From Dudresnaya verticillata (taxonomy: Eukaryota): a stretch of DNA of 64,000 nucleotides. How positions within the stretch are numbered: the stretch's first letter is position 1; the number at the start of each line of letters is the position of its first letter. This document shows, piece after piece, positions 1 to 43,781 of this stretch. The DNA lies in NCBI GenBank assembly GCA_977862235.1, contig OZ374565.1, forward strand, positions 1,550,001 to 1,614,000, given 5' to 3'. The translations under genes and the position numbers were made by a program. The notes below the pieces were generated by a model. The model worked only from the letters and a program-made list of their open reading frames with translations. It did no database searches and was not told where the DNA came from.

Positions 1-2035
1 TGCTGAATAGCTTCAGCGGCGATTGCGGGCTATGTTGCTCTGCATAATTCTTCAGCGCCAGTAGGAGTAGCTTTCGCCATGATTTTCTTCCTTTTATCTT
101 GATTCTGAGTTTTTTTGGGACAGAACATAGGGGGGTCACGTCGAGCGGAAGTCCACAATTGTCCCATCTTGTAAGATGGGACTCAATGCCTTGGTCAGGG
201 GTTGCTGTACATAGCAACCCCTATCCAAAGCATTGCGTTTCGTATCATCTCAGCCCCAACAACGCTATCGACGTTAAAACAATTCACAACTTCATCATGC
301 CACTCATTGTGTGTGGCCCTCACACTCTTACTACAACACGGTGGGTATTGCCCTGGGTGTGACTGCAATGAAAGTTGGAGTACTGCAATTACTAACTGCT
401 TGAATTGCAAAGGTAACCCCCCATGACCCAGTACAATGGCTGTACCTCTGCCGCTGTCTTCCTTCGTGTCATTCTCAGCAAGTACTCATGTTGGAAGCGG
501 TCCACATGATGATATCTTCACGTCGTCCCCTATCCTCGTTTCAGGTATCCCAGACGCTCGCCCCATGGAAACATCGTGATGCTCTGGTTCTACGTCGACG
601 GTCTTTTACAGAAAGACAACCTTTTAGACGCCCTTCACTCACAAGGTAACCCCTCAGCTTGCTGCACAGTTCTCTCTCAGCGTGCATCATCTACTATGGC
701 AATAACTACAGACAAGACGGGTTCAACCCCACACAGAAAGTTTCGTTTACTACCCCTCACATCCAAACCCACTCATGCCTCTGATTCAGTATCTTCCACC
801 GTCCAATCCAATGGCACCGCCCAGCCCAGCAACCCTAACACATCCCGAGCTCCCCTCATCACCCGCTCCCAACCTGCCCGGCTCTCTCCATCATATCGCG
901 TGCCCATCCCATGAGCTGCTCCCGGGGCCATAACGTTGTATCCAGCTCAGCCAGGGCAACTCCGCGCGTCTCGATGACTTCAGCACGAAGAGCCCTGAGT
1001 TCTTGTAATAGGCGTTCCGGAGCAGTGTCGGAAGGTGATATTTTGTCACCGGGTCACGGTCGGGTCCGTGATTTCCTTCACATATACTTCGACGTCGCCA
1101 CTGGCAAGCTTAACGAAATTTCGTTACCCTCCGCTCCAACCGTGTCGGTGCGCTGACCTGTTGATCAACAACCCTCGGGTCGAGTCAACTTCGCAAGCTC
1201 TTCTAGGAGGTACAAAATGAGGCGTTTAATAACCTCATACATCCTGTCCGCTAGCATCGTGGTTAACAATAGCGTCCGAAATCCCAGGACCCTGCTCCCC
1301 TGTCGCTTCAGGATTGAGACCATTCTGCATGCTTAATAAACGCTGCATGTATTACCGAAGGTACTCGGTCATCAGGAAGTGCCGGCACGCCGGTGAGACA
1401 TTTTTCGGAAGGTGGCGACATTTGGCAGCTTACTACAATATTTCGTAGACCATACACACAGCCACAGCTGAATGGGCTCTGCGTCATGCTCGCGTCGTGA
1501 TGCTTGAATGGGTCTGAATAAAGTTGGCCGGCATAAGATGAGCTCCGACATCAAGGACCACCAGCCCAACCGTTCTCTCCTCAGAAACTCGGCGCTGGGA
1601 TTCTGGAGACTTATTACGGTTCTCACGATATCAATTATTTCTCAGTATCCGTTGCGCCCATGATAAATGTGTCTCCTGTATGACCAGTTTCCAGTACCCT
1701 ATAGGGCTATAGCAGCATCATCCTTCGGCGTGAAGTGACTGTAGTCCTTCAGTACTTGGTCACCCCATGACACCAAGCCTTGACTGCATATTCATCGGCT
1801 TCGATGGATATTTATGGTCGTTCCTTATTGACGATGCGCCCTGTATTTTGAAAAATTCCATACCAAGCTTTCGGACAGGAGTCACAAAGGTCGACCTGGG
1901 TCTGCTCCTGAGCACATTGCCTTGTACACCATGGGGCTTAATGCGTTTTGCGCACAGCTCGTATCGTGATGCCTGCGCCTCACGTTTAGTAACGTTGGCG
2001 AGGATATGACTACATCCAGCGCGGGGGCCGGGCAT
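1..2035 (-). pseudogene. Decayed coding region of unknown function (several stop-broken minus-strand reading frames)
   Basis: Minus-strand fragments 1760..2035, 1372..1626 and 195..410, plus stop-interrupted protein-like stretches between them; no family motif recognised. Confidence 0.25.
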
Positions 2036-3031
2036 TAACGTGAGACCGGTACCAGGAAGGGCAGCGGAGTGCTGCGGTGGAGATATGACCTGCGGCGGGC
2101 GTCATATTTATGTTGATTAGCGGTTAACCGCAGAACCTTGAACGGGCGAATCCACAACTAACAAGTTGTAATCTCTCTTGAGTCAGAAGCTCAAAACTGA
2201 GACGTATTTGCACCGCCGCTACGTAGAAACACGACGTGCTCAACACCACGCGGAATGTCGCCCTTAATACCCTTCACATCCAAAAATCAGTAACACCTCT
2301 GATTCAGAACGTGTACCGTCCACTCCACTGGGACCTCCCACCATCCCATAAGCTGGTTCCACGCGAATGCAGTTACTCATCAAGACCATACCGGTGTATG
2401 ATAGCAGTACACTGGAAACAAATGGAACATGTCCAGGGTTGACACAGGTTCTGATTGGCACAGACGGTGGCGTATTAGTCAATCATCACTGCTCTAGACC
2501 TCCTCAAATAGGATGTGTGCGCGGTGGGGGATAAGCGCCACGACTTCCAACTTTCGCTCTGGCATCACTTGAGATATGCCTGAATTCCTAGATCCAGAGT
2601 GGCCAGTCTACTAAAACCTCAAGCCATGACCGCGATCTGCATCGGAGCAAACGCCTCCACCACGCGTCTCAAGATCATCCCCACGTGCTGTGCCGACTGC
2701 GAACTCATCAGTGAGTCCGATTCCGGATTCCTACTGACTTGTTCGCTCTGTTCTCGGTATTCACGTAACCGTATCTTCCAGCGACGGAGGGGTATCCCGA
2801 GGGGTACCCATATTCTCAGTGTCTGCAGTTGCATCTGCAGCGTCACCACGCCTTCGAGTTGGGTACCACCTACCCAATACAGTTATTTTACGGCTGGGAG
2901 ATATCGACACCTCCTCCATTCCACTCCGCAAGACTACTGCCCGGCAACTCTTAGGTGCACGCATTCCACTAGCAACGACGAGATTCAAACCGTGGAACAT
3001 CGATATATCACCCCGCATTAACACAAGTGAG

Positions 3032-5128
3032 ATGGGTCGCGCTCGGGAGAATGTGCAGAGTGGCAAGCCCAAAGTTGTCACTGCGGACATAAGAAACGCT
3101 CCAACGACTGTGAGGTCCCATCCTACGCCTTGCAGTCTGCGTAGAGCGAGCACATGCAGGAAGGACTCGAACATAATCGGGAAATAATGGCTACCGTCAA
3201 GTCTCCCGGTTCTGATTCCGTCGAACAGCGCGATAGGCAACATGTACAAGCGAGGAGTGTCGTACTTATGATGGATGGAAAGGAGGTAGGCACGGCTGAG
3301 CCACTGAGGCCGTCACCACCCGAAGAGGGGGATGACACGGGAGCTTTCAAGGTGAGGATGTATGGTCGTTCGCTGAAGGAGTTGCAAGGGAAGGGCGAGA
3401 CATGGGTAGTCATATTCAATGTCAAAGTTTAGAAAGACCATCTTCAAAGTCGTTACAAGTACAAGTACCCAGGACTGGAGCCCCCCCCCCCGCCCACTCT
3501 TTCTGGACTCAATTTGGAATTCATGTTTGGGACAGGGAGCAGATAACGAATGGGAAGAGAAAGCAAACGGAAGAGGAAACTACAGGGGGTGCGCAAGGGA
3601 ATATACCTGTCAAGTCGAAACTGACAAGTAATATGGGAAGTGATGGCCGTGTTGCTCGAAGGGTGCTTCCATCGCGGAAAGGGAGGCCTGGTCTACTCCA
3701 GCGCCTTGCTACAACGATAGGGATGGGAACTAAAATACCTGCTCCCCATTCTGAATCTCCGAAACGGTCGTTACAGGTGAATAGAACCAGTACAGACTCA
3801 GTGGCTGAGGCACTTCATGGTGAAGGGATCGAGCAAACTAAGGAAAGAGCGCACGCCTTCGCCTGTCCCGGAACTGCCCTTACTCGTCTACACCCCTGAG
3901 CGACAAGCTCCCATGTGCCGTCGTCCATACGCATTGGATGCTGGAAATAATGGCGACAAGAGGAGTCGCAACGCCTCGGATGAAGTCGAATTGTGTACCA
4001 CAAGGAGGGTCGAGTCACCAAAAAATGATAGCAATGACGATAGTGTGCGTCTTGACGATAATCACACACCCGACGCTGACGAGTCGCCAGACTGGACGCC
4101 AACGGAGACCAGAGAAGTTGATGAAGAGGCTAATAATGGTGCCCTGGAAGCTTCGTGGGATAAGCCCAAGCGCCAATACAGGTATGTCAATCGCCCAGAA
4201 GGAGCGCTTTCAGGGTCAATAATGCAGGCGAAGAGGCGGAGGGTTTTGGAAACGTTGGAGAGTCAGGACATGTCCGGTATCTACTGCTGTAAGATGAAAC
4301 AGTGTTTCGCCACTATTAAGCCTGTTTATGTCATAGCCGAGTCGCGCAAAGTCATGGCGCAGAACGGGGCCGAGAGAAAAAGCTACCTCGCAGGGCTTCT
4401 TGAGCACAACTCCAACATGTACTTTTTAGCGGTCGTCCTGTCTGCTATACATTCCTGGAGAGGGCGTTCGGCTTTTCGAAAGACCTTTAGTCAGTGGTGA
4501 AGGGGACAAATCTCATCGTGAAAGGAAAGGTAGAGGGCTCGCTGTCACGTCTTCCTCTACTGAGCAGCTGGAGGTCATCGTTTCATTTCTGGAGCGGCCT
4601 TGCTGAAGTCTCTGGAGACTCGCAACCGGACAAGCAAGAGACTCATCTTCCGTTCTATTAGAAACTCGCAGTTTACAACATGTTTAAGAAAGAACATGAC
4701 GCTCTGTATTCGAGGCGAGAGACGCCATCTCAAAGCTACTTTTACAGCATCTGGATTCGATACTGCCCACAAATCAAGGTACGGCGCACGCATAGGTTTG
4801 CGAAATGCCCTGAATGCGAACATATCAAAGACTTGCTGACAAAGGCCGCCGCAGACCTTCCTAGCACGGAAGCGATTCGTGAGCGTCGGTTACGATATGT
4901 CAAAGCGATCATGAAGGAGAGGCAGAGTATCGCAAGAAATGCGAAATGGCATCTATGTACCTCAAGAGCTACTGCTATGCAATAATCGATGGTGCTGATC
5001 ATTCCGTGTTCGGATTTCCTCACTTCCATGTCAAGCGGAAGGATATCCGCGGGCATGCCTTGAAGCCGAAAGTTGTTGGTGTCCTGGAACACGGTCAAAC
5101 TGCAAACCTCCGCCTATTCACTATGACC
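3032..5128 (+). pseudogene. Sola-like (DUF7869-type) DDE DNA transposase, frameshifted and 3'-truncated, with an extra N-terminal domain
   Basis: Consecutive fragments 3154..3432, 3402..3899, 3817..4500, 4680..4985 and 4946..~5128 give CC-x4-C, 'PSQSYFYSIWIRYCPQIKVRRTHRFAKCPECEH' and 'IIDGADHSVFGFPHF...KVVGVLEHG', the layout of Sola/DUF7869 transposases. Homology stops abruptly at ~5128. Confidence 0.7.
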
Positions 5129-8100
5129 GGTTGGCTTCATGCACTCCCACATGCAACTTGGACTGCACAAATCCAGTCGCAGCCAGAGCCTCAACACCTC
5201 GTTCCGATGACTCCACAACACCAAAGCTTTCCTCGGCAACATGAGTCTGATCTGAGTCATCCGCAGCAGATTCTCCAACAACGTTGTCATTCTTTGAAAC
5301 TTGCGATTCAGTGCTGCGAGGCATGACTGCAACGTCGTCAGTAGCCCCATCCACATCCTTCATCCTAGTGACACCATCTACAGCAGCACCATTTGTCGTT
5401 GTATCCTGCGCACCACCTTCCTCCATCTTACGGGCATCTATTTCTTCCTCTTCTACAGCAGTATCGTCCGCAATAACATCCTCAGCAGAAGCATCATCCG
5501 AGTACGTTGTGTCGGTGCAGAGGATATCCGTTATAGCGGTACTAACGACAACATCATGTCGAGTAGTGCCACTGGCAACAGCTTCATCCACAGCATTGGT
5601 ATCCGAATTGGCTTCTCTAACATTTGTTTCACACCCAGCAGCTTCATGTTGGGAAGCTTTGCCTTCATCAATCCCATCTGACGTACTCCCAGCTTGTGAT
5701 TCTTTTCAGAAGCCGCGAAAAAACCCAGCTCTTCGTCATTATCCTCTGCAGTGGCACCATTCCGAGAACAGTCTTTGGCCGCAGCCAAACTCGCCGCTGC
5801 TTCATCTGCAGAAGCACAGTCTACTGCAACGTCGGCGACATCTGTAGCAGCTGCCACTCCAGAATTAGTTACGATAGTGTTGGTTATAGTATTGGCCATA
5901 GGTTTACCTGCTGCAGCTTCAAGCACAGCAGCATCGCCCTCTCCAATGCGCAATTCAGCAACAGTGTGTGCAGTATCGCTTTCAATCGCCTTATCCACTT
6001 CAACTTGAGTTCCAGAATCATTATCCTCAGAACTGGTGGTGTTCGTCGTATCAGCTACGTTCTGCATAACAACAATAGTAAAAACGTCATCCACAGCTGG
6101 TTCCTCCGGAGAGGCGTCATCAGCGCTGGACTCCCTCGCAATAACTATCTCCGTAGCGTTTTCGTCCTCTGCATATTCACCCACTGCGACTGCATCTTCA
6201 TCGCCTTCATCAGCAATTACTTCGCCAGCAGAGGCCCCATCTGCAGTACAGGTATCCACAACAGAAGCACCCACAAAAGCAGTCTCCGCAATATTGCTGA
6301 TCGACTTGCCTTTGCGAATATTCTCATCGTCCGCAGAAATTGCTGGCAATGAAACGTTGAGAATAGCACTATCCCTCGCAAAAGAAATTTTCGCAGCAGC
6401 TTCAGCACAACTCACCTCCTCATCTAGTGCATCCACAGTATCATCTGTTGAAAGAGAAACAGTATCTGCACCACCAGAAACGATACCTGCAGGAGTTAGT
6501 TCCGTACTAGCAGTGTCTGTAGAAACATTTTCTACACGATCTTCAACTGCTAGAGGGTTATCGTCATCAAATTGAGGCGTAAGACTTCTATCGGCGGTTT
6601 CGTCACCCTGAAAATGGTCATTCACTTGAGTATCCTCCAGAGGAGCGCTTTCAGATAGAACGCTTTCAGCAGGAAGGACAACCGGGAGAGGGCCCCAAGA
6701 AGGATCTTCTTCCACAGGAAGAGCGCCGCTCAAAAGACTGACATCCTCAGGAATATCGTCTGCACAATTGTCCTTTCCAAAATAGTGTCTTTTGGAGTGG
6801 CGTCATCGACTATGGGGTCTTCTGCAGTAGCCTCTTCCACATAAGCGATTGCTGCAATTACCTCTTCTTCAGCAGTCTCATGCATTACGATGTGTTCTAC
6901 AGCCGCATCTTCTACAATAGTGATATCCACGATTGCATCTTCTGCAATAGCGATATCCACGATTGCCTCTTCTTCATAAGCATCGCCCACTTTGGCGTGT
7001 TCTGCAACAGAGTTGAAAACAATAGCGTCTCCTGGAGGAATTTGTAAACTCTGCGTTTTGCTCCTCGGCGTTGTTGTAAAAACTGTGCTCTTCCCCCTCC
7101 CCTTCCTACGGTTGCTGAGAGAGGAGCAGCTTTTATTGTCATGTTTGTTCCTTCTGCCAGCTCCAGAAAGATGGAGCTATACACAGAACAGTCATCTTCA
7201 TTCGTTCTATCAGCTCCAGTACGTTGGAGCTGGACACAGAAAAGTCACCCTCATTCCTCCTGTCAGCTCCAGAACGTTGGAGCTATACACAGAACAGCCA
7301 TCCTAATTCCTCCCGTCAGCTCCAGAACGTTGGAGCTAGACATGGAATAGATAACTTAATACTCTAACGGCATAACGTACTGTGCCACACGTACAAATTT
7401 GAACAGTACTACAAAAACAAATATCCCCCGTCTGAGCTTGAAGAACAAGTCCGTGTTGGCGGCTTAAAGTTGTCGGTAGTCTAAATCTCTCTACAAATGT
7501 TATAAACAATAGGGTCTTGTTCTGCAACGTCATCAAACATAGCTTCCTCTAAGGAAGCGTTCATAACAATATTTTCTCCTGCAGCAGCATCGTCCACAAC
7601 AGTATTTTCTCTTGTAGTGTCATCCAATGTTGAGTCTTCTATCGAAACATAGAATCGAGCAGCGTCTGCTGCAACAGCAGAGTCGACAATAGCGCCTCCT
7701 ACGCCAGTGTTACTCACAATTGCGTCTTCTACAGCAGCTCCATCCATATTATCATTGTCAACAAGAATGTCTTTCGCAACTTCCACAGAGACGTCAGCCA
7801 CATCAAAACCTTCCGCGGCGGAGGCGTTCAAAACAGAGCGTTCTAAAATATCGGCTTCTTTAGAAGCACCTTGGACAGAATCATGGTACATAGAAGAGTG
7901 TTCACGCGCAGCGTCCTCAGCACTAGCCCCCTGAACGATAGTGTCGCTCGACGTGTCGTTTTCAGTAGCAGTGTGACCAGAAGCGGTATCACCTGTAATG
8001 TCGTCTTCGGCATTGTAGTCTTCTGCGGTAGAGGTAGCGCATTCTACGAAGGCGTCTCCCTCCGTAGCGTCTTCTACGGAGGCGTCTTCCACGCCAGAGT

Positions 8101-9640
8101 CTCCATAAGTACGGTCTTCTACAACATATTCGTACACATTGTCACCTTCCATAGTAACTACAGCAGCGACTTTCACAGAGGCCTTTGCAGTATCGCCTTG
8201 CACATCCGTAGTGTCATCTCCGACAATAACGGTAACAATAGTTGAGTTTCATACAGCTTGATTATGCACATTGCCTTCACAAGCAGAAGCGTTACCAACT
8301 GCGGTCTTATCCACATGGTCATTCGCAGCAGAGTCATTCGCAGCAACGTCGCCCTCGGGAGCATCAGTTTCGACTGGAATATTCGTTCATGCGACTTCCT
8401 TAACAACATCTTCCGCAGTCATGTTGCTAGTATCATCATCAGCTCCTGCTGTCTCATCCGTAAAAGCAGCGCTCGAAGCAACTCCTTTTTCACCCACATC
8501 TGCTGCAATCTCATCACTAATCGCAGTACCTTCTAAAGCAGTATCATCTACGAGACCGACACTCGTAGCAGGGTAGTTAATAGTACCTTCAGCAGTTCTG
8601 TCCACAGTAGTTTCATCTACAGAAACAGATAGAGCGGTCGCACCCGCAACCGTGCCGTCGCTGACACCCTTTGCTCCCATTTCGCTCGTAGAACCGGCCA
8701 TTGTATTGCTGTTATCATCCATACCTTTGCCACTTACAGCAATCCCATGTGATGCAGAAACGTCAAAAGACGAGTCGTGCGCAGCAGCGCCATCGTCGAG
8801 AAACTCCGTCTTCATGGATGCAATCGTGCCTGCGGCTTCCTTGGCAACATTGCCCGTAGTACTGTCGCTAGACCCATCATCGTCTATTGCCATGTCACCC
8901 GTAACAGAGATGCTCGTAGCAACTCCGTCTTCACGCAAATCTGCTGCCATCGCGCCACTCGAAGCACTATCTGCTAAGTATCCTGCTGATGCAGTATCAT
9001 TATGCAGTATCATCTACGAGACCGGTACTCATAACAGCACCATCCATAGAAACTCCTCCAACAACTGTGTTCACAGCAGTGTCATCTACGGAAGAAGACG
9101 CAGCTGTTTCACGCGTAGTCGTGTTGTCGCTGACCTCCTCTGCTACCGTTTCGCCCTCACCAACAACAGTTGCATTGCTTTCAACCTCCTTAGCACTGCC
9201 ACTCGCAGCAGCACCCTCTGATTCGACGACATCAGTAGCAGCGTCATTCGCAGCAGCGTCTTCCTCGGGAACATCTGCTGCCGTAGAGACATTCGTGGCT
9301 GTGGTTCCCTTATCAACATCTTCCCCAGTCGTAACGCTAGGACCAGCATCGGCAATTGCTGTGTCACTCGTAACAGTAGCGCTCGTAGCAGCTTCGTCTT
9401 CAGGCGCTTCTGCAGCAACCTCGTCACTCTTGGCAGCATCTTCCGCAGCAGTATCATCTGCAAGGCCGTTACTCGTAGCAGCACAATCCACAGAAACAAC
9501 CCCACCATCTGTGCTCACAGCAGTATCATTCAAAGTCACAGCAGGGGTTTCAGCGGAATGGTTCGTTGACAAGTTTGCAGCGACTCGCGGTTGGATTGCA
9601 ACTGTTGTCGACGTCCACAGTGCTCCTGGCTTGCGATATT
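5121..9640 (-). pseudogene. Very long Asp/Glu/Ala/Thr/Val-rich low-complexity protein, broken into fragments
   Basis: ORFs 9000..9572, 8387..9013, 7481..8203, 6730..6990, 5531..6733 and 5121..5591 share the same acidic composition and recurring motifs (EDA.VED, GLVDDTA). Confidence 0.65.
7158..7342. repeat. 53-bp minisatellite, 3.5 units, each with an AGCTCCA-N6-TGGAGCT hairpin
   Basis: Units start at 7158, 7211, 7264 and 7317. Confidence 0.9.
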
Positions 9641-10440
9641 CTCGCTCAAGCTGTCATCAACGTTGCGTGAGACGATTCGGGCGTAGTGGAAGAGCGTTCC
9701 AAGACGGTCTGCAGCGATGGGTCTCTAGAGAAGATAGCGGTACACGTCAGTTGGTTCTTGCGTCTAGATTCGAAGAAGAGCGTCACGGCTGAACAGCACC
9801 AGGCGGCTAAAGGCGCTACGCGCCGTTTGCGCAGTGCAGTATGCTTGGAGTTAGGAGTATCAGCATTCTCAGAGACATCGGCAAGGGAGTGGTTTGGGGA
9901 GTACGTCCGTTGACCTCTCGCACGCCGTGCGGGTGCGTCGCGAGGCAGTAGCTAATTTCTTTCCTCGTGTCTGGGAGCTATCGACGAATATATATTCATA
10001 ATAGCTCCTCGGCACTGCCGAGATCGAAACGCGACTTTGTTAGGTTTCACGATTCCGCTTCCTGAATAGCTATGTAGCAAACTAGATTATATCCAAGAAA
10101 ATATCTACTTTTTAGGTGTTTCATTCCGACCAAAAGGATGAGCTATGTAGCTCCCACGGAGCTGCAAATCAAAACCCTATGAAATAGATGTTTTATTTCG
10201 CGCATCTCAACATATATTGGCCGATATGTATATTCGTTTCTAGCTTTTTGAGATCTGCTTCCTCGTTTGCTACTGATGTCAACGTGTTCCCGAGGTTCCG
10301 GCCAACCTCGTCGTGCACCCATCTTCTGCTCTGGGATGCCCTCTCTGCCGCCACCCCCCGTGCGCAGTAGCGGTCAGCCACTACCCATGTCGCCCTCTAG
10401 TGCGGCCACCTCTTGAAATGTTCCAGGCGCTGGCCGATCG

Positions 10441-10717
10441 TGCACGCAGTCTGACTACAAGCCGTGTTCATTGACTACGCACTCCTCGTTGTACAGCGTA
10501 CGGCGTACGTACGCCTGTGCATAGCGGCACCCCGTCGCCACAGGCCGCTCATGCACGCAGTCGGCGCACCTCATCACCGCAAGCCGCTTGTGCACGCAGT
10601 CGGAGCACCTCGTCGCCGCAAGCCGCTCATGCACGCAGTCGGCGCACCTCATCGCCGCAGGCCGCTCGTGCACGCAGTCGAACTACAAGCCGTGTTCATT
10701 GACTATGCGCTCCTCGC
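10441..10717. repeat. 39-bp tandem repeat (~4 units) bracketed by ~48-bp direct repeats
   Basis: TGCACGCAGTCGGCGCACCTCATCGCCGCAGGCCGCTC-type units; TGCACGCAGTC..ACTACAAGCCGTGTTCATTGACTA at 10441 and 10669. Confidence 0.85.
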
Positions 10718-11111
10718 TCAACGGCAGGGCGTGGCTGTACCCTAACGCTATTGGCCTCTCGTGCAATACAAAAATGTTATTCAAAGATGTCCCATCTTCG
10801 GGTAAAGGACCTCACCGCAGCCTCCCACTCTCTTACCATATTGGCGCGGGTTGTACGACTAAGCAGCGAGGTTGATGCTGACGAGAGAAAAGCAGTAGTG
10901 GACGCTCCGCTGATTGCAGTGTCTAATGAAATGGATGTTGCAACATGTTGCGCTGCAGCGCGAATTGAGAAGTTCAACCGGACTTTACTGTATCAGGAGA
11001 GAATGGGAACTGGAAGAGAAAGAAGGCACGTTGTGCAGCGTTTCGACTGTTCACGTCATCGCAAAACATGTTGGTGATCAATGCATATCGTTTACAAGAA
11101 TTGCGCAAAGC

Positions 11112-11693
11112 CTATTCCGAAAGCGGGTCTTCTACATTGCGTTGTCCTTCCTCCCTAAGTGCACGTACAGAACGATGCAAGTCCTGTACATTTCGAAGAG
11201 TATTGCGAAGCGCCCTTATTATCTTTCTTCCGAATTCTTGAATGAGGTAGCGAACGAAATTGGATGCCCTTTGCACTTCGACCTCCAGGTCACCGACTAC
11301 GGCCCGCAGATGGGCGACCTGTGCACGTAGTCGTATGACCTCGAGCTGTGCATCGCCAACCGTTGGGTTAAGGGGCAGTGGCATTTCGGGTGTTGGTAGA
11401 ACTGTTCAGAAGTTGTGTTGAAGCTGGTTCTCAATATCCGAATCCAACTCTGGGTCGTCTCCGCCCAGGACATGTATCCCAAGACGCCGTTCGATAGTTT
11501 GCAGTCTTCTTCTCGCAGCCCTCGCGATTTGCACTGCCTGAACCACAACTCTCGACAAGCGGTCCATGACGTTGGTGGTTACCTCACTCATTCTCTGCCG
11601 AGCACTTTCCGCTCGAGTTCCTAGCGCGTCTACCTCCACTCAAAGAGCCTGTACCTCGGAGAGAAGTGCTTCTGTATCCACGTCTGTTGCCAT
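11112..11693 (-). pseudogene. Small coiled-coil protein with two in-frame TGA stops
   Basis: ATG at 11693, ORF 11406..11639 and ORF 11112..11384 are all in one frame; heptad-rich (LEVIRLRAQVAHLRAVVGDLEVEV). Confidence 0.45.
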
Positions 11694-11831
11694 GTCGGCC
11701 TCATGTCTATTGTTTCGCGGTGATGCAATGGGTATGGAAATGAGATCGGCTACCTACCGAACGAAGCGCACTCTTCACTGGCGAAAAATGTGCGTTCATT
11801 GCACTGCAAATGTGCTGGCGTTTCCAGACGA

Positions 11832-14800
11832 CTACGACTCGGGTTGGAAAGGTTCCATCTCATTCAGATCCCACTTAAAGAATGCACTTAAATCCCTGAG
11901 CAGGGCCGGTTTTTCCTCCGGGCCCTTGAAGGTGTATTTGTATGGCTTATCAGCAAACATCTCGAACACATCGAATGAGAACACCGCTACGAGATGTTTC
12001 CCAGGTTCGCTAAACTGCTGGAAATAATGAGCATGTATGGTATCCTTAACCCCAGTGCCGTTTTCAGTCCGCTGAATTGACGCCTCCCTAACTCTCTGCT
12101 GTCCGTATTTGAGCCAAACTCTGTCGCCCCCTTTCAGTATGGCCTCACTACACTTGACAGAAGAGTCCTGAGACAAGAATTTGTCTTTCGCTGCTGCTGC
12201 GTTTTGCACGACACATGCAGTACTGCAACCGTGTTTGCCATCCTTCCCCACTTCTGTGACATCCTCAGTGTGCGATGGTACTCCGCACTCAGCTGGCTGC
12301 GCCTTCTTCTGTTTTTCCTGCGTCTCGGAAAGATCAGTTGGACGCTTATGTCGAAGTAAAACCCTAGATTTGCAACTCCGTTTCTCGTTAGCGAGGCGTT
12401 GTAGTCTCTCCCTGCCCAGTCTGAACGTCCCAGCTTTGCTTTCAACAAGAGTGCACTTCCTATGCATCCTGAGACACGCAGTTCCTGTAGTCATCGTTTC
12501 GGCGTGTGTGTCCAGAACAGACCCCCCATCAGGGCAAAACGTGGTAAGGACCTCTGTGAGCATGTCCGGGTTCTTTTCCTCTGTAAGAAGCGGGGCTCTA
12601 GTCGTTCCAGGCTTAAAAAGTTTATCCCTCGCGGCGGGAACAGACGTCATCACAGCGAGTTTCCTTCTCTCGCGACATGGAACGTAGTGGTACGGACTTG
12701 ACAAGTCGGGGGAGAATGATCCCTTCGATAATCTTTTTCGCCTGCCAAATACTGCAATCTCAGCACCATTTTGCAGCCCCCTCCTGCGACTGATCTGAAT
12801 AGTAGCGGTGTCCTTGCATATCACGAACGGGTACTGTGGGCAATCGAAGCTCTTATCCGTAAGAGCTCTTCTAAATGTGGGGAAGTTCATAAAACTGCAA
12901 TAGATGAAGACCAACCCACCCTCCTTCACTACTCGTCCGCAGAACTCACACAAACGTTTGATGTCCTCTTCAGTAAAGCTGTTATCGTATTCAGTACCAA
13001 CGTCTGACATACCCTTGGGTGTCCCGTACGGTGGGTCTGCAAGGACAAGGTCAAATAAAGGACTGCACTCGTTTCGGATTGACTGGTCGTACTCCCGCCA
13101 CCGCATCTGATGGGTGGTTATTCCGCACTTGGAGATACCGTCACGGTCTCCCTCAAGAGACGATGTGTTCAATCTCTCCGATTGTCGAGTAGATGCCGCT
13201 GAGCGAATAGAGAGCCTGGAAACATTCTCTCCTCGCTGATCAACCTGTTCTGCTGTACCGGTCTCACCATTCTGGCTATCTTCATTGCCATGCACCTTGA
13301 CCGGCGTGGTCATATCCAGTATCTGATTCACGACGCCGGTAGTTATTTCAAGACTTTCCTGCTCTTCTTCAGGTGCCATCCCGTCCATTCCATCCTTTTC
13401 CTCGGCAATGCCGCGATCAACCACGCTATCGGGGCCAATATTAGAAATTGAAACCGGATGTTTATCCTTCTGGCCAGTTCCGGGTGTGGATTCCCCCTGG
13501 GACTCGACCTCTGTGCGGAACTGGTATCTATAGTTCTTTTCTTTCCGTGGAGCTTCCTGAGGGCATTCTCTTCGATATGCATCCAGCAAAGGGTTTAAAA
13601 GATCCTGATCGTTGCTGAAGTTCGCGCGTACCTCATGGTCCAACTTCGTGGAGTTTAAAATGTTTTGCCTAATGACTTGCATTCCTTCCGGCCAAGTTTG
13701 AGTCTCCAACAATCGTTCGAATTTGCGCGCTTCCTTCATTGCTTCCTTCGCTTTCTGAAACTGCTCCAGGGTCTGATAGCTTGTCACAGACCGGAAGTTC
13801 TAAAGTCGGTGCACTTCACGAAATCTGTCCAATGTAGCTATCTGTACTTCCACCCCGTCCGCCATCTTGCTCGCATTCATGAAAGCGGCTGCAGACTTGA
13901 GCGATGTAATATGGATGAATTTACGGTACACTCGGCAGTCGACGCTTCGCATTGCCCCATCTTTGTCCATCGACGTGCCTTCTCTGTCGCAGTTTATCTT
14001 GGCAGCCAGGTCCGGCCTTTCCTCATTCGTATTAATTCCAATTGCCTCAATATCCTTCTGATCCAGACGCAAGACAGTCTGAGCAGTCTGTTTAATGGTG
14101 TTATTGCGTTACAGCTTCGAGCCATCATATGCCTCGGCAATTTTGGGAGCACTGGGTTGCTCCCTGTCTTGGATTGCAACCTGTCAGCCTCCTGTCGCAA
14201 GCCATGGATTAGATAGTAAAAGGTAGTTTCGATGAAATAACCGTGTGCATGTTTCTCATTCTGATGACGGGCAAGCTGCCGTAGTTCACAGATGCTGTGA
14301 CCGTCCTTCAGTAAGGTGACAGGTCAAGCAAACGATTGCCACACTGTGGGAAATTCCACCATTAATTCCGATATGACACAATGTTGATGTACTCCATCGA
14401 CAATTCCGAACCACTTGGCACGAGTATTTGCCTCTACCAACGCATCCTCGTCAGAACACAACTTTCCTCCTTCTGTTCTGGACCTTTTGAAATATGCTAC
14501 AACCAAACCCCTCAGTGTTCCGTTTAATTCGACAACGATTGGGGAGTCGGGCCCAGCGACGTAGCCAACAACTCCCTCCTTGACGTGAGAAGAATGTAGG
14601 TGAAAACGAGCTTTGAGTCGCTCCACACCGGATCGCACCACAGGCCTTATCTGTGTCAATGGAATGCAAGCTCTATGATCGATTGTAATGTTGACGGAGC
14701 CATCCATGACATCAGGGAACAAAGCCTTCCCGCTACTAATGGAGAAGGCTATTTCTGCTTCTGCAGCGGAGCTGTCAGCCCCTTTTCCTGTTCTCTTTCT

Positions 14801-14857
14801 CGACATCTCGGACAATCTCCCCATCGAACGCGGCGTTGACTTTCGAAGGTATTTCAC
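11832..14857 (-). pseudogene. ParB/Srx-like domain + beta-class N6-adenine/N4-cytosine DNA methyltransferase + C-terminal transposase-shared domain
   Basis: ORF 11832..13787 has catalytic motif IV 'FDLVLADPPYG' preceding 'EKNPDML..VL..FCPDGGSVLDTHAETMTTGTAC' (motifs X/I), i.e. beta order. ORF 14324..14857 has 'IRPVVRSGVERLKARF...FGIVDGVHQ' (ParB-like). The pieces join across three stops and one frameshift (~14150). Confidence 0.8.
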
Positions 14858-15450: not shown

Positions 15451-15865
15451 TGTTGTGAAACATAGGGGGGAGAAGCGTTTCTTCTCCTGTAGATGTAACT
15501 GGTTAGGGCAGAATCCTGCCAGAGACGAACGTGCGCACAAGCGCGTGTGGAGTCCCACGGTTGACTGTTTACTGAGTAGTTATTGAGTGTGTGTGTGTGT
15601 TCGAGTATGTGAACACTGCATCACGCTAGCCCTTAAATACTACGGAGAACTAAAGGGATAGAACTACGAACAGTATGTGGTGTAAGTTGCGGGATAATTG
15701 CAACTAACACTCTCAGCTAGAGAACGACACGCCCGCTTTGTTCCACGAACAATTGCCACGCCCTAGTCATCTATTGCGGACGTGGACAAACTAATTCGTA
15801 CGGGTTGACGAATGACATCGAAATGCTATAAGGGTGGCTTAAGCACAAGCACAGTTCCGTTAACA
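15451..15865 (-). repeat. 3' LTR of copia element E (415 bp)
   Basis: TGTT...AACA termini; short purine tract GGGGTA just upstream on the minus strand; follows the RNase H stop codon. No partner LTR in the window. Confidence 0.7.
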
Positions 15866-15905
15866 TACCCCATTGCTTGATGTCTGAGGATAACCAAAGG
15901 AACTA

Positions 15906-17045: not shown

Positions 17046-17341
17046 CCACTCCGATGAGACTGGTTCAATTACCTTAGCGGAAAGCATGCGATCGATCTCT
17101 GTCTTCTCGAGATCTCGCTGCTTATGTCCGGCACGGTATGGGGCTTGATATACTGGCTTCGCTCCGGGAGTTAACTCGATGCGGTGCTTGGCAGCTGTAA
17201 TGTTGCCAAGATCGCCACTCCACATCGACTTATATTCCTCGAGTAGGGTTAAAATCCGTTTACGGAGCGATGCTTCTTCTGTGCCGATCTGGACTTGATC
17301 CTTCCAGTCGGTAGTATTTGTATTTTCCGTTACGGGTTTGC

Positions 17342-18253
17342 TTATTTCCTTGTCGTGAGGGGAGATGCTGCTGGCCTTTTCGGAGGTAGGGTTAGAATTA
17401 AATGATTGAATAATTCCTCCCCCTCCTTAAATGGAGGTATACCGTCAACGGTAAAAGTAGCAGAAGGGGCAGCAGTAGCGAGGCCCACGACAGTAGATTT
17501 GGGCAACCGTACTGGCTTATTAGAAACATTAGAGACCCAGATCCGAAACGGTATGTTAGGTACAACATCCATAATACCATTAGCCATTAACGTGAGGTGT
17601 TTAAAAGCCGGCTTAGGATGATTTTGTAGAAAGCATAACCCACCCGTGGGGGTATTAACCGTTACGGTGGTTTGAGTCATAGGGGGAATAAGGGTAGATT
17701 TTGCTAAACGAATTTTCTGAGAAACCGTAGCGGTAGAAAGAGGTGAGGGCTATAGGGTGGCAGTGGTTCCCGTCTTCGGAATTTTGGCTTGACCAACAAG
17801 GGATACCGGTGGGTAATGATGAAAAACAACTTTCCGTAACGGCGGGAGGATGGCCTTCACGTAGCGGTCGATGAAGGTAGTTCCCAAAATACAGGGAGCC
17901 GCCAAGTTCGCGACCACTAGAAAATGAACGCGAGCACGGAGCTCTCCGATACGGACGAAAAGTTGGATCTGACCAAGAGGGCGTACAGCGCGATTAGACG
18001 CATCCCATAATGGAGGACTGGCTGCTGGGCGTATGAGTGGGAGCCATTGGCGCGGAAGGCGCCTGGCACTAATGAGATTGGGCCCAGCGCCAGAGTCCAA
18101 GACGGAGATTAAAGGAAGCATCACGCTATCTGTCCGTCCCACGGTAATTTGCATCTTGTAATTTTGATATTGCATAAAGCAGATAGTATCATTGGTCTGA
18201 TAAGCCAATGGGAGTTCCGTAACGGTATCTCGCCGACCCCCTGGCGGGTCCAC
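17342..18253 (-). pseudogene. pol: Aspartic protease + linker of A1, one internal stop (17750)
   Basis: 'VLDSGAGPNLI', 'ILGTTF'; continuous in copy A2. Confidence 0.9.
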
Positions 18254-18297
18254 ACTCGCGAGAGGTGGAACGCCGTGAGGCGGGGATGGCGGCGCCC

Positions 18298-20778
18298 TTA
18301 CGCAGCCCCCCTTGAGTTTTCCGAATTCAAGGTTGCACCAGTCGGATCCGCCTCCAGGGGCTCGCGCAATTCTGCGAGTTCCACTCCGTCATGGTCCTCC
18401 ACCGATAGTATCGGGGCATTCCGTTGCGGAGGGGGCGTATGCGGTCTGCCCCGATTCCCTTGCGGATTCGAACCGGTTCCTACTACGAACCTGCGACCTA
18501 CAGGGTAGTGCTTCTGGAAGTTGCGCTCGCGCTCTTCCATAAGCCTAACCCGATCGGAGTCATGTATCCATGGGCAAACAACGTGCTCTGGAGAAAGGCG
18601 GATGCAACAGTTACCACTTCCATAAAGGCGTCGGACCCGAGGATCCGACTCATCCCGTAGCGGAGGTGCTGGTTGCTGCCGTCCTCGCCCATCGTGGGCA
18701 TTATTTCCGAAATGGTGACTCGGCTGCTGTTGGGGGCCAGGAGCCGGGCGAGATCCACCATAGGGGGGACCTTGCGCGCGTGGCATCCTGGGCGGAGTAG
18801 GGTGGCCGTTTTGAGGGGGCGAGGAGTACGAGGTAGAAAAGGTAACCCCCGTGCTCGTACCCGTAGCGGCACCGTGGCCTCCCTCGACGGCTAGCACTTG
18901 ATTATCCGTAGCGCAAAGATTCCCTTGCGACTCATAGTGTACATCCGATACGGAATCCAGCAACAACACCTTAGACGGGCGCGCTTTAGTGCGCCCATCA
19001 AAGACGTGAGCCGGAACGGTTTGGCGTCGAGCTGCCCGATGGGACTGACCCAGGCCAGTCGCATAGCGAGTGATGGCCTGGTAATCCGACTGGGAATGCG
19101 TCGCTAGATAATTTCTCATCTGTTGACAAGTACCCGGTAGGAGTCCTTCAACGAACAGTGACTTCAATGCCCGATCGGAAAATACTGTACCGCAACGGAG
19201 AGCCTTGGCCCAAAGCTGGTTCGAGAACTGCTCTTCCGTCATGGCGGATGTTTGCCTGAAGTTGCTGACATCCGTATAGGCTTCAGCAATCACTTCCTCC
19301 GTAGCGTAGGTTCTCAATAAAAAGTTCACCACCTCGGAATATGAGCGGAGCATCTCGGACTGCTCCACGTCAACCGCCATGGTACCTCCAGCAAGCCTAG
19401 CCTGTAGAAGGGCTTCGGCCTGTCCTTTAAGGAAAAACTGGAAGCACCAGACGGCAACCCCTTCGGCGATGCCGTTGATGTTACAACCGTCACGGAACTT
19501 AGCGAGAAATCCCAAGACGGTAATAGGGTCCGTCCCATCGAATGTATGGGACGACATCTGGACGTCGAGTTTCTTCCGTATACGGCTCATGTTCTGTGAG
19601 AACTTAGAGCCGTAGGTTTTACTCCTCTTATCCAATCGGTAGGTGCGGTAATCCAGCGCCTTGACAAACTTGTCATGTAGCGGCCGGATTACCTTAACCT
19701 TTCCGGATTTGGCACCGTGTTTTCTGGCGCGGTGCCTATTCTCTCTATCCGTTACGGAAGAACTCTCTGATTCTGAATCCGTAGAGGTAGATGAGTCATG
19801 CCTTTTTTCGCGTTTCCGCGATCTTCGGTTTCTCCTCTTGCGGCGGCGGTGTTGGCTATCCTCTGAGCTGCTCTCATTGGATTCCATACCGGATTGGTGG
19901 CGTCGTCGCTGGGTGTGGTCGCCCATGTGCGACCGACGGGGAGGGTCAGAGCGGGAGTGTCGGGCATCTCGTTTATGCCGACCTCGACTGGCCCTCCGAC
20001 TCGGATGGGGTGAGCTGGACGCATCGCTGAGATGGTCGCTGCCTCCACCTGATCGAACCGGAACGGTATAGCGCTCCTGCTGATAGCGCCCTGACGTAGG
20101 CACATCTACGTGTCCAGGAGAATACCGTAACGGTGGCGGAGTGTGTGTTGGTCCCGTAGGGGCTTGTTGATGTTGAGAATCCGTTACGGGAGCCGGTGGC
20201 AGTGGCCCAGAGGGTACTGTGCCCGGCGGCAATCCCATAACGGGGGGTTGTTGCGGCTGCTGCGTTCTTCCCTCGACCGGGAAGTCATTCCGTAACGGTG
20301 GTTGCTCAGTAAAAGCTTCCGTAGCGGGAGGCCTTGCCATGCCGGGAACAATCTGGCTCTCGAGTTCGGCGGCCACCTTTTCCTGTAGGATCAAAGCTTG
20401 CACTATCCGAGGAAGGAGCTGCTCCAGGTAGGAATTAACCAAAGACGGAACAGTTTCCGAGAGGGATATCTCCACCTCTTTTACCATTCCAGGTTGTACT
20501 TCCAATCGGAGATGCTCTAACACCCGAGGAAGGACCTCCGACAGAACCCAGTGGACCCGATGGGATTCCGGCTTGGGTTGCGGAGCTGCCTTCTTCGAGG
20601 CGTCTGATCCGACACGGGAACGGGGAGCTTTACCAGCAGCACCCTTTAGGATGTCTTCTGGGTTCTCCACTCCGGGACGGATTTCACCTCCGTCACTGCG
20701 CAGACTGCGCGCAGCGGGGGTAGTGTCACCCGCTTTAGGTTCCGTAACGGGAGGGTCTGCGTGTTCTTCGTTCTGCAT
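18298..20778 (-). CDS. gag: Gag of gypsy A1 (826 aa, uninterrupted)
   Basis: Capsid-like 'FDGTDPITVLGFLAKF...FRQTSAMTEEQF...FVEGL'; degenerate zinc knuckle. Confidence 0.85.
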   Translation of the reverse strand: MQNEEHADPPVTEPKAGDTTPAARSLRSDGGEIRPGVENPEDILKGAAGKAPRSRVGSDASKKAAPQPKPESHRVHWVLSEVLPRVLEHLRLEVQPGMVKEVEISLSETVPSLVNSYLEQLLPRIVQALILQEKVAAELESQIVPGMARPPATEAFTEQPPLRNDFPVEGRTQQPQQPPVMGLPPGTVPSGPLPPAPVTDSQHQQAPTGPTHTPPPLRYSPGHVDVPTSGRYQQERYTVPVRSGGGSDHLSDASSSPHPSRRASRGRHKRDARHSRSDPPRRSHMGDHTQRRRHQSGMESNESSSEDSQHRRRKRRNRRSRKREKRHDSSTSTDSESESSSVTDRENRHRARKHGAKSGKVKVIRPLHDKFVKALDYRTYRLDKRSKTYGSKFSQNMSRIRKKLDVQMSSHTFDGTDPITVLGFLAKFRDGCNINGIAEGVAVWCFQFFLKGQAEALLQARLAGGTMAVDVEQSEMLRSYSEVVNFLLRTYATEEVIAEAYTDVSNFRQTSAMTEEQFSNQLWAKALRCGTVFSDRALKSLFVEGLLPGTCQQMRNYLATHSQSDYQAITRYATGLGQSHRAARRQTVPAHVFDGRTKARPSKVLLLDSVSDVHYESQGNLCATDNQVLAVEGGHGAATGTSTGVTFSTSYSSPPQNGHPTPPRMPRAQGPPYGGSRPAPGPQQQPSHHFGNNAHDGRGRQQPAPPLRDESDPRVRRLYGSGNCCIRLSPEHVVCPWIHDSDRVRLMEERERNFQKHYPVGRRFVVGTGSNPQGNRGRPHTPPPQRNAPILSVEDHDGVELAELREPLEADPTGATLNSENSRGAA

Positions 20779-20802
20779 GATACCTTAACGGAACACAACG
20801 GT

Positions 20803-20964
20803 TGTTCTTGCTTGTCTATCCAATATTCCGTAACGGGTTGTTAGTACAGCCGAATTCCTACCGTAGCGGATTTCGACGGCTGTTCTTGCTTGTCCATCCA
20901 ATATTCCGTAACGGGTTGTCGGTACAGCCGAATTCCTAGCGTAGCGGATTTCGACGGCTGTTTC
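20803..20964. repeat. 78-bp tandem duplication in the A1 5' leader
   Basis: Units start at 20803 and 20881; single copy in A2. Confidence 0.9.
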
Positions 20965-21004
20965 TTCCAACCGTGACGGTGTTCTAGGTCGGGAGACCAA
21001 AAGA

Positions 21005-21679
21005 TGTGGTGTAGTGAAAACCCACGAACTCCGAGACGGACAGCTGGCCTGACTTTCCTTAACGGACGAGAGCAACACTACCTCCACGGGGTGGTAGAGC
21101 AGTTCGCACCGAGACGGGAGAACAGCGAGCGGCTAACCGAGATGGAAATTGGGAAGCAACAGACAAGGGGGTGGTACAAGTGCCGGGACGGACTCCGTAA
21201 AGGTGGTGGTGGTAGACCGCAACAGGCTCGGCGCGGGGAAAACCGTAAAGGATTGGGCTACTGTTGCTTACCCGTTTACCTTAGGAGCCGCTGCGGTGCC
21301 GCCCTGATATACAAGTCAGGGTGGCACCGAGAGGTCCGGTCCGTGGGGGCCAGACCCTAGTGGTCTGGTCCTTTGGTGGAATCGGCCCTACTGGTCCCAA
21401 TCTCCGACACGGACATGCGCAGCATTCTCATTGGCTGGCGCACTACTCTACATACTGTACAGATACTCACTAAAAATAAAGAATAAACACTACAAATACT
21501 CCGATATGGTTGGTGCGCTTCACTGTTGTACAGCAATGCGTACCGGCGTACAGCAATGCGTACGACATCCGACACGGTTACACGTTGCCAGATCATCAGC
21601 GTGGCGTATTGCCACATCACCCGTTACGGTTGGCTCGCCGTCGGCGTGCCGCGTGCGCGCCATGGCTCACTTCACCACA
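21005..21679 (-). repeat. 5' LTR of A1 (675 bp)
   Basis: TGTGGTG...CACCACA termini; PBS at 20982..20999. Confidence 0.93.
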
Positions 21680-31488: not shown

Positions 31489-33770
31489 CTACGGTTTTTT
31501 CGTCGCAGACGGCTCAGATGGGGCATCATCCCCGACGCCATTGGGGGATTCTCTTAACGCCTCTTCGTAGAGGTCGTCTTCCGTCACTGACGATGCACTC
31601 GCAGCAGGGGCAGGGACGGACCGCAAGGGACCCGCCACAACCACTGCTGTCGAAGTCGCGACATCCGCCGCTGGCGCCGCATCTGGCTCACAATCCGCCT
31701 TAGGCGACGACTGTCCGTCAACCGCCATAGGCGCAACGTCAGGAAGCTCACTCGCCTTTGGCAGCGGAGCATCCTCAACCGCCTTGGGTGAAGTCGACGG
31801 CCCCGGCACCTCCGGTGACGGGACCGCATTAACCGCCAAAGGCGTTGAACGATCAACATCCGTCACCGACGAAGAGGCCACTAGAGCCTGCGGAACCGCC
31901 GCAGGCGCTACCATCGCACTCGCCTTTGGCGGACTTTTGTTAACAACGTCAGTGGACGCAATGGCGGACGAACCCGCACAACCCGCCTTAGGGGACAAAG
32001 GCTTTTTCGCCACTCTGTCATTAGACGCCGCACCTTCGTCGTTAGACGGCACAGTCGCAACGACGGTCGACGCCGGAACCGCAGCAACGCTGGGCTGCAG
32101 AGCAGCCAGCAGCGAGTGCCCGAGGGGCGTCGTGGATGACCTGCCCGACCCGTCAGTGACGACACCGGTAGCTCGCAAGAATGCGAGCACTGTGCTACGC
32201 TGCTCCTCAGTCCATTCGGGCACTGCAGGAGGGCGATGCGCACCGTCAGCGACGTTAGACACTCCACCTTGAGGCGTAACTACAGGCGCAGAACTCGCCA
32301 TGGGCGCAGCCATGATGGCATCACCATCACCCTCATTGACGGGCGCCGAGAGATCCAATGGCGCAACCGACGGCAAGCCAACAGGCACAACAGCCGACGG
32401 TCCTACCGCCGCTGGCGAAATCGTCGCGGGGGCTGTCGCTCCCGCAGAAAGCTCAACCGCCATAGGCGTAACGATGTCCGTCCCAGAAGGGTTAACTGGT
32501 CCGCTGTTAGCGTGGAACGCATCCTCCTCCGCCATCAAGGCGCTCCAGTGGGGTGGGAAATCCCCCGCAAAGTCGCAATTCTTGCGCAACCCACGTGGGT
32601 GATTCGCTGCCGTGAAGCGGTCCGTACGAAGATGGCTCTGAGCGATGTTCTCCGTTGTAAGACGTTTGGTCCACGGGTTGTACCATACCAAATCGCCACA
32701 GGCGGAACGATTCCTACTCATCGCGTAACGCGGACGGTTTACCTTACGGCGCCGGTTTCCCGGCGGCACAGCTGCCGGGTCGTCCCAGTTGACGTTATCC
32801 CCCACATGGCGTAGATCCCAGAACTCTTGGCAGTTCCTGGCACCGCCCAGTACTTCAGTCAAGCCAAGCCCGCCAAGGAGACTGAATACACGTGGCGGCA
32901 CATAATAGAGCCGGAAGGTGTCATACACCTCCCACATCCATGCGTAAGTTACGTTGACGACCCACTCGGTGAAAAACACGATCCAACATCGGGAGTACGG
33001 ATCCGTCCGCAACTCGGAGCCAATATACGTGACACACGGAGGCAATTCAGCCGCAAAGCCCTCGCAGACCTCAAAGTCCCGCCACAACGGCGGGACGCGA
33101 ATGAAGCAATGCGGCAACTTTTCCCGCTCAATGCGATCAACTTGCGTATCTTGATACGGTACAAAAACGCCTTTGCGGCGACGCGTTTCGCACTCCCAAC
33201 GGACGCAGCGCTCCCAATAGAAGGTGCCCGTCCTGTGCAAGTATCGGAAATCCGCTTTCAAGCGTACACCAAGGAGGTTAGCCTCCTGAAGCACCCGCGG
33301 CTCAGCCAAAACAGCCACAAGGCTTAATGACAACGTCCCAAGATGGTCCCCACCTACCTCACCATTTGTGCGGTACTGCCCTTCGTCAAATGCAAAGACG
33401 GTGGGCGTCAATACCGACCCCGGATAGCGGGTAAACCGCCGATACACGTCAACGACGAAACGCGCATGCGCATCTGCACGCGTCTGGCCGGCGGCAATAC
33501 GCAGCCAACCCCTCGGAATGGCGCACCGATGGCGCCACTCGTTCGTCCACACGACGGCCAGGGGCAACTCCCCTGGAAAAATCCGCTCACAGCGTAATGG
33601 TTGATGAGGTCCTCATGTCGCGGGGCCTCCTGGTCGAACCAGGGGGCCCGCGAGAATAAGCGGGCATCGTTGCGGGGAGTCCTCCCGACAAAGTCGAATG
33701 GTGACGGATACACCGGCGCCGCCGAAGGCGCAGCCACTCGTAGGCCGTTGAACTGTGCCATTACGTCCAA
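31489..33770 (-). CDS. Additional antisense ORF of gypsy B: Trp/aromatic-rich globular domain + Ala/Pro/Ser-rich tail, one frameshift near 33575
   Basis: 692-codon ORF 31489..33567 plus upstream piece 33408..33770, located between pol and the PPT. Confidence 0.75.
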
Positions 33771-34239
33771 GACGTTGAGTAATCACACGCCACTGGCGGA
33801 GTTCATACGATACGTCAATGACGGTTCTGGGACTTCGAAGTCGAGTCAACTACGCCAAAGGCGGAAGCACACAAAACACACGTCAACGACGCTAGACTGA
33901 ACGACGCCGAAGGCGGACCGCAAAGAAACGCCCTAGGCGGTAAGCGTACACACGCGTGCAAAGATGCGACGTCAACGACGGGGTTTCACGCACGCCACTG
34001 GCGAAGTTGGTCAACGACACGTCTTCGACGGGGAATCTTCCTACGCCAAGGGCGGGGAAAACTGCACGTGCGTCTTTGACGGGGCTCAACCAACGCCAAG
34101 GGCGGGCAAACGCAGACGCGAAGACGCGGGTGACCGACACGATCGGCACTGGAAGAGACGTAGGCGCGGGAAAGCAGGCAGGCTGAAGCAGGTTGACGTG
34201 TTTGCGTTTTCGGAGGGGGTCGTGTAGTGCCGGGGGGGT

Positions 34240-34895
34240 TGTGGTGAAGTGAGATTCGGCATCCGAAACGGTGGAAATGCATATAGTGTGGCCTGAACCG
34301 TTGTGGGATGTGTGCACGCGTACTCGTGTCGGTTTTGGGTGCATTGTTGTGTGCTGGCGTACATTGTTGTGCAGCAGTGGAGCGCACCAACCGAAGCGGA
34401 GTATTTGTAGTGTTTATTCTTTATTTTTAGTGAGTATCTGTACAGTATGTAGAGTAGTGCGCCAGCCAATGAGAATGCTGCGCATGTCCGTGTCGGAGAT
34501 TGGGACCAGCAGGGCCGATTCCACCATGGGTCCAGACCACTAGGGTCTGGCCCCCACGGACCGGACCGCTCGGTACCACCCTGACTTGTATATCAGGGTG
34601 GCACCGCAGCGGCTCCTAAGGTAAACGGGTAAGCAACCTTAGCCCAATCCTTTACGGTTTTCCCCGCGCCGAGCCCGTTGCGGTCTACCACCACCACCGT
34701 TACGGAGTCCGTCCCGGCACTTGTACCACCCCCTTGTCTGTTGCTTCCCAATATCCGTCTCGGTTAGCCGCTCGCTGTTCTCCCGTCTCGGTGCGAACTG
34801 CTCTACCACCCCGTGGAGGTAGTGTTGCTCTCGTCCGTTAAGGAAAGTCAGGCCAGCTGTCCGTCTCGGAGTTCGTGGGTTTTCACTACACCACA
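34240..34895 (+). repeat. 5' LTR of A2
   Basis: Direct repeat of 43126..43781; TG...CA termini. Confidence 0.97.
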
Positions 34896-35043
34896 TCTTT
34901 TGGTCTCCCGACCTAGAACACCGTCACGGTTGGAAGAAACAGCTGTCGAAATCCGCTACAGTAGGAATTCGGCTGTACCGACAACCCGTTACGGAATATT
35001 GGATAGACAAGCAAGAACAACCGTTGTGTTCCGTTGAGGTATC

Positions 35044-37519: not shown

Positions 37520-37563
37520 GGGCGCCGCCATCCCCGCCTCACGGCGTTCCACCTCTCGCGAGT

Positions 37564-43125: not shown

Positions 43126-43781
43126 TGTGGTGAAGTGAGATTCGGCATCCGAAACGGTGGAAATGCATATAGTGTGGCCTGAACCGTTGTGGAATTTGTG
43201 CACGTGTATCCGTGTCGGCTTTGGGTGCATTGTTGTGTGATGGCGTACATTGTTGTGCAGCAGTGGAGCGCACCAACCACAGCGGAGTATTTGTAGTGTT
43301 TATTCTTTATTTTTAGTGAGTATCTGTACAGTATGTAGAGTAGTGCGCCAGCCAATGAGAATGCTGCGCATGTCCGTGTCGGAGATTGGGACCAGCAGGG
43401 CCGATTCCACCATGGGTCCAGACCACTAGGGTCTGGCCCCCACGGACCGGACCGCTCGGTACCACCCTGACTTGTATATCAGGGCGGCACCGCAGCGGCT
43501 CCTAAGGTAAACGGGTAAGCAACCTTAGCCCAATCCTTTACGGTTTTCCTCGCGCCGAGCCCGTTGCGGTCTACCACCACCACCGTTACGGAGTCCGTCC
43601 CGGCACTTGTACCACCCCCTTGTCTGTTGCTTCCCAATATCCGTCTCGGTTAGCCGCTCGCTGTTCTCCCGTCTCGGTGCGAACTGCTCTACCACCCCGT
43701 GGAGGTAGTGTTGCTCTCGTCCGTTAAGGAAAGTCAGGCCAGCTGTCCGTCTCGGAGTTCGTGGGTTTTCACTACACCACA
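43126..43781 (+). repeat. 3' LTR of A2
   Basis: Direct repeat of 34240..34895. Confidence 0.97.

Follow-up and report, generated by a model that had tools for sequence, protein, structure and literature searches.

We analyzed a 64,000-nucleotide stretch of DNA from Dudresnaya verticillata (assembly GCA_977862235.1, contig OZ374565.1, positions 1,550,001 to 1,614,000), referred to here as the window. It is repeat-rich eukaryotic DNA (~50% GC), in which Gypsy and Copia elements lie nested from 15.4 kb on. Ahead of this nest lie two decayed genes on opposite strands, a likely transposase and a ParB-methyltransferase, that carry the same ~100-residue domain, which belongs to no database family and is predicted to be a small barrel. 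The two genes are composed of the following parts:

3250 to 3545, plus strand: segment A, the first copy of the barrel, with an ATG at 3187 lying ~20 codons ahead of it; located by hidden Markov model (HMM) and hhalign
3546 to 4260, plus strand: linker of low complexity that reads open if one frame switch is allowed, the frames overlapping at 3781–3899
4260 to 5131, plus strand: decayed core of a likely transposase, DUF7869/Sola1-like, with CC..C, HLP and CxxC motifs and a first catalytic-type Asp near 4990
11832 to 12146, minus strand: barrel copy 2, the C-terminus of the ParB-methyltransferase, located by HMM
12390 to 13110, minus strand: beta-class amino-methyltransferase domain (PF01555, E 1.3e-10; score 42 bits, curated cut-off 26.7)
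13110 to 14810, minus strand: remainder of the same gene, with an N-terminal ParB/Srx-fold domain, a helical region and a linker

Both barrel segments are present at these coordinates. A sequence-only reading of the window had proposed that the transposase and the methyltransferase share a ~90-residue domain, and comparison with relatives confirms this at the sequence level. Direct comparison is borderline, so the homology is visible only through relatives. BLASTP of segment A against the methyltransferase segment gave no alignment. The Smith–Waterman score was 47, a value reached by 53 of 3000 shuffles when the target was the entire methyltransferase open reading frame (ORF) and by 2 of 2000 when it was only the tail. 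Three database proteins, retrieved via their methyltransferase domain and all ending in the same domain, scored 95, 84 and 72 against segment A (0 of 2000 shuffles each). An HMM of these three relatives, from which the window methyltransferase was excluded, gave segment A 36.0 bits (E 3.4e-13; range 36–41 bits), compared to 8.3 bits for the best of 5000 shuffles, and across six frames of the whole window it matched only the two barrel positions. Segment A reached 66 bits with a 30-sequence HMM, or 71.6 bits with its frameshift set near 3513, and hhalign of the two barrels returned 98.5% (E 1.5e-15). Of the checks named along with the original claim, HHalign bears it out, and shuffled controls do so once relatives are used. 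Both segments read as quoted there; segment A contains a premature stop (3430–3432), and a frameshift must be crossed to reach its WD, which the HMM places best near 3513 and not in the poly-C run.

Identity between the two barrels is 17.6%, which ranks 24th in 30 comparisons, and the barrel closest to segment A is that of the relative P0038 (31.7%). In a tree, segment A groups weakly with P0038 and P0058 (90/83; long branch, rough support) and not with the neighboring methyltransferase barrel. The low identity and this separate grouping point to a domain shared since long ago or picked up elsewhere. Recent duplication of the barrel in cis was rejected on the same identity and tree, in which segment A sits on a long branch and the bootstrap is not fully settled.

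Among 1.84 billion representatives searched, 283 relatives had E up to 0.001, and 150 of them were listed. The barrel was found in 31 of 152 proteins, counting the window methyltransferase and relatives among the matches listed. It ends about a third of such helper proteins and is missing from 71 of the 106 relatives that have a tail. Placement in the helpers is strictly C-terminal (48/48 carriers); all 48 were gathered as methyltransferase relatives, a sample that could not reveal a transposase fusion. Relatives P0011, P0024, P0057, P0061, P0094, P0095 and P0126 end instead in PHD-like Cys-rich fingers or a SET domain. A single-sequence search for the domain matched none of 27 candidates.

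The barrel is predicted to have an SH3-like topology, which would liken it to the Royal-family readers (Tudor, PWWP, chromo-barrel) and to BAH/KOW domains. Conserved aromatic columns are present in the alignment, and a net acidic composition is seen in 24 of 28 barrels. Foldseek, which had been suggested as a check, returned no match at E < 0.001 in PDB or BFVD, and a sequence search of PDB with the barrel found no match. DUF4138 was considered as an identity for the barrel and set aside (Atlas clusters at 0.90–0.91, low recognition). A two-copy complex prediction, in which the alignment was not used, scored 0.00 ("no answer"). The suggested likeness to the Tnp1/En-Spm domain may extend to the broad fold class, but not to sequence, as PF03017 matched 0 of 28 barrels at E up to 1. 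The plant TnpA PF03017 barrel, likened to NDX-B, is likewise a C-terminal small beta-barrel of an accessory protein with a structural tie to a chromatin regulator, according to the accessible text of PMC13547354. A DNA-binding role, put forward in the sequence-only reading, is disfavored because the barrels are mostly acidic and the methyltransferase protein already has a ParB-fold domain. The shared barrel may direct the transposase and the methylase to common chromatin.

The plus-strand gene is likely a transposase. Its core motifs (CC..C, HLP, CxxC) were read by eye across about four further frame switches and two stops, and we take them to be those of DUF7869/Sola1-like transposases; the link between DUF7869 and Sola1 is also our assumption. 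The core is cut off at about 5131, ~45 codons past the first candidate Asp, which leaves the DDE/D triad incomplete. Pfam found no match in the transposase fragments. In Atlas, the last intact core piece is nearest to unnamed eukaryotic clusters at 0.96–0.94, the one at 0.96 being oomycete-dominated, and one cluster at 0.91 has PF25273 in 13% of its members. The name DUF7869, which was not found in the literature searched, is therefore a lead only. Nothing in the window points to an EnSpm/Plavaka transposase.

Downstream of the barrel, the reading frame continues without a stop for 387 nt. Overlapping it is another open frame, which runs on into the transposase-like core. Only one further frame switch, between 3781 and 3899, is needed to link barrel to core, and a one-switch open path across these 751 nt arose in 1 of 20000 dinucleotide shuffles. 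The simplest reading of this arrangement is one continuous ORF with an N-terminal barrel. Segment A could instead be a separate small accessory gene, a barrel with a disordered tail ending at 3899, similar to the TnpA/Tnp1 barrel proteins and placed head-to-tail with a transposase that starts from an ATG near 3817. The frame-3 ORF does end at 3899 and the frame-1 ORF does have a Met near 3817, and head-to-tail split TnpA/TnpD genes are described for Arabidopsis En/Spm families (PMC13547354, accessible text). This arrangement would require same-strand ORFs overlapping by ~80 nt, whereas single-base frameshifts are common throughout both genes, and we consider it very improbable.

These frameshifts are unlikely to be assembly errors. 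Over 3839 nt, two Gypsy copies in the window show 85 substitutions but a single indel, and the decay of the genes therefore looks real. Upstream of the transposase, no gene was recognized in 1–3180; the region contains two adjacent hairpins (161–238) and a dispersed 113-bp repeat (712–823 and 2229–2340, 74%).

The ParB-methyltransferase gene comprises about 990 codons. Its N-terminus contains a ParB/Srx fold, a domain overlooked in the sequence-only reading. The DPPY motif is intact, and this motif IV precedes motif I. The S-adenosylmethionine-binding motif has Glu at the usual Gly (Gly in 113 aligned rows, Glu in 2). The gene is broken by a frameshift near 14150 and by stops near 14110 and at 13800–13802. 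Pfam detected no SET domain in the window methyltransferase, and P0126 alone had one among 24 relatives scanned; P0126 is without a ParB domain and is built like PAG2, discussed below. In many relatives DPPY is replaced by EPPx or another degenerate motif, among them P0038 and P0058, the two that group with segment A by their barrels; much of the family may have lost catalytic activity. GATC avoidance was considered as a methylation footprint and rejected, since its z of −4.0 drops to −2.1 without the acidic gene described next. Just downstream of the methylase gene, 11112–11640 (minus strand) contains short coiled-coil-like ORFs with weak Pfam matches.

Two further features lie between the genes:

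5121 to 9653, minus strand: broken, highly acidic low-complexity ORF series (18–24% Asp + Glu), of uncertain membership in the element
7148 to 7342, no strand: tandem array of 3.7 copies of 53 bp (Tandem Repeats Finder), with a palindrome AGCTCCA-N6-TGGAGCT in each

The spaced palindrome has four matches, and none of 100 shuffles reached at least four. The array is a candidate ParB site, or may be an unrelated small insertion. It lies within ~440 bp of non-coding sequence (7037–7480) that interrupts the acidic gene and could be an intron, a small insertion or a cluster of ParB sites. The acidic series belongs to no recognized family and has a ~700-bp internal duplication (8383–9085 and 8824–9529, 66%). 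A separate 39-bp tandem array (10455–10725, 3.9 copies) reads on the minus strand as a repeated, zinc-finger-like CxxC-V-H, with no Pfam match.

The sequence-only reading placed both genes in one element. Their layout, on opposite strands with the four-palindrome array between them, fits this, and we hold it plausible, with the balance tipped slightly in its favor. Several observations weigh against it. No terminal inverted repeats or 4-bp target duplication were found when 1–3300 was compared to six candidate right-hand regions, 6.7 kb of other sequence separates the genes, and there is a junction at the point of transposase truncation, where the break in the core adjoins exactly the end of the acidic gene. 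No second linked copy was found in viral contigs, prokaryote genomes or JGI metagenomes, the last of which contained two short, weak loci at 25–35% identity. The ends of the element may lie outside the window or beneath the LTR (long terminal repeat) nest.

An alternative is a copy-specific chimera or collision, in which segment A is the tail of a second, deleted ParB-methyltransferase fused to a transposase remnant and the minus-strand methyltransferase comes from another element. The shared domain would then reflect only the abundance of the helper family. The C-terminal position of the barrel in every one of the 48 carriers fits this, as do the distance between the two barrels, the missing termini and the nature of the region as a nest of insertions. 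In addition, alignments of relatives reach upstream of the barrel to about 3082–3091, over linker-like sequence. However, no methyltransferase or ParB remnant was found in 1–3100, and six-frame Pfam scans of 1–3180 and 9700–11830 recognized no further gene. An ATG precedes the barrel by ~20 codons, no stop follows it, the open path to the core is rarely matched by chance, and the 48 carriers are a sample blind to transposase fusions. We regard a chimera of this kind as a minority possibility, though one to be taken seriously.

The pairing of a transposase with a ParB-methyltransferase has a close published counterpart. Sola1-1_Ec32, a giant DNA transposon from Ectocarpus (21.5 kb), has a 1104-residue gene product with ParB-like and N4C/N6A methyltransferase domains, encoded opposite the transposase, and its authors propose that this protein binds and modifies its own transposon DNA (PMC12477816, accessible text). 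The window gene, at ~990 codons against ~1100 residues, is similar in size and is also placed on the strand opposite its transposase. The accessible description of Sola1-1_Ec32 mentions neither a C-terminal barrel nor a domain shared with the transposase, and its termini (AACCG...CGGTT with a 282-bp terminal inverted repeat) were not found in the window; the two systems were compared by description. The accessible text on the red alga Bostrychia (bioRxiv 10.1101/2025.02.11.637652) reports that the Plavaka accessory genes PAG2 (PF01555 + SET) and PAG3 (ParB + 2OG oxygenase) move among several superfamilies of red-algal DNA transposons. As described there, PAG3 has a ParB-like domain with neighboring tandem inverted repeats, comparable to the palindrome array between the window genes. 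P0126, the PAG2-like relative, is a distant match of the window protein (E 2.2e-13). Compared to both families as described, ParB and methyltransferase are joined in the window in one protein that ends in a barrel. Compared to the beta-class enzymes CcrM, M.BceJIV and M1.HpyAVI and to rotifer N4CMT, the window methyltransferase is fused to ParB and barrel, and its copy is broken.

A further possibility, close to the sequence-only reading, puts both genes in one element whose barrels attach to one another or to a common DNA site; the transposase would then recruit the methylase, which marks the element. The shared domain is real, the opposite-strand layout is that of Sola1-1_Ec32, the palindrome array lies between the genes, and a transposase–accessory complex is predicted for plant En/Spm TnpA–TnpD in the accessible text of PMC13547354. 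Yet the mostly acidic barrels fit DNA binding poorly, the helper has a ParB-fold domain of its own, and two thirds of tailed relatives (71/106, above) do without the barrel. The similarity between the two copies is also no greater than their similarity to other proteins' barrels, with no sign of joint evolution. Such recruitment appears improbable.

Given the published proposals for ParB-methyltransferases, the self-marking transposon is a published hypothesis and not a new one. Of the "undescribed system" originally suggested, the pairing and the self-marking idea are already in print, whereas the shared barrel was not found in the literature. No barrel common to a transposase and a ParB-methylase appeared in the literature searched, which the Ectocarpus FASTA and the Bostrychia Table 6/Fig. 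13 supplements could change. The accessible text of PMC4738411 contains no such family, and a term search of the accessible text of 10.64898/2026.08.24.746577 gave no match.

The remainder of the window contains the LTR nest (15451–53197) and probable host genes. A Copia remnant is present whose LTR (about 15451–15869, by eye) has no partner within the window. The two Gypsy copies (17046–21585 and 34232–43781) are 97.7% identical and in opposite orientation; further Gypsy elements occur in the nest, together with a Copia element (47671–53197) whose LTRs are 98.6% identical and a 707-residue ORF without a Pfam match (31489–33612, minus strand). Beyond the nest are a DNMT1-RFD and bromodomain protein over two frames (55974–57196, plus strand) and a glycosyltransferase-61-like gene (59001–60614, minus strand), both probable host genes. 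ORFs at 61298–63324 resemble, by eye, the tyrosine recombinase and RNase H of a DIRS-type retroelement.

Established are the homology of the domain, the family's combination of ParB, methyltransferase and barrel, C-terminal placement in the helpers, the open path to the core and decay; the copy in the window is dead. To explain them, we propose a decayed giant cut-and-paste transposon, of a kind known from brown and red algae, with a barrel-ended ParB-methylase helper and a likely transposase that begins with a distant copy of the barrel, an account we rate as evenly balanced between right and wrong. The ParB domain would bind the element, possibly at the palindrome array, and the methylase would modify adenine N6 or cytosine N4. 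The barrel would be a swappable protein- or chromatin-binding module, its slot being filled in relatives by PHD-like fingers or a SET domain. The transposase would have gained its barrel long ago from this pool and not from its present neighbor. If so, each protein would use its barrel for chromatin targeting and not for gripping the other.

Two 2025 papers propose that ParB/methylase helpers of algal transposons bind and mark their own element, and their accessible texts do not show the mechanism. The barrel, a small, purifiable domain predicted to be well folded, is a direct handle on the targeting of helpers and transposase, and adds an unclassified SH3-like family. A bolder and rather unlikely extension is that the barrel is an undescribed Tudor-like reader, carried by the transposase and the ParB-methylase of algal giant transposons as a transposon-private read-and-write circuit. 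If this were true, cutting, insertion and a bacterial-type DNA mark would all be aimed at one chromatin state.
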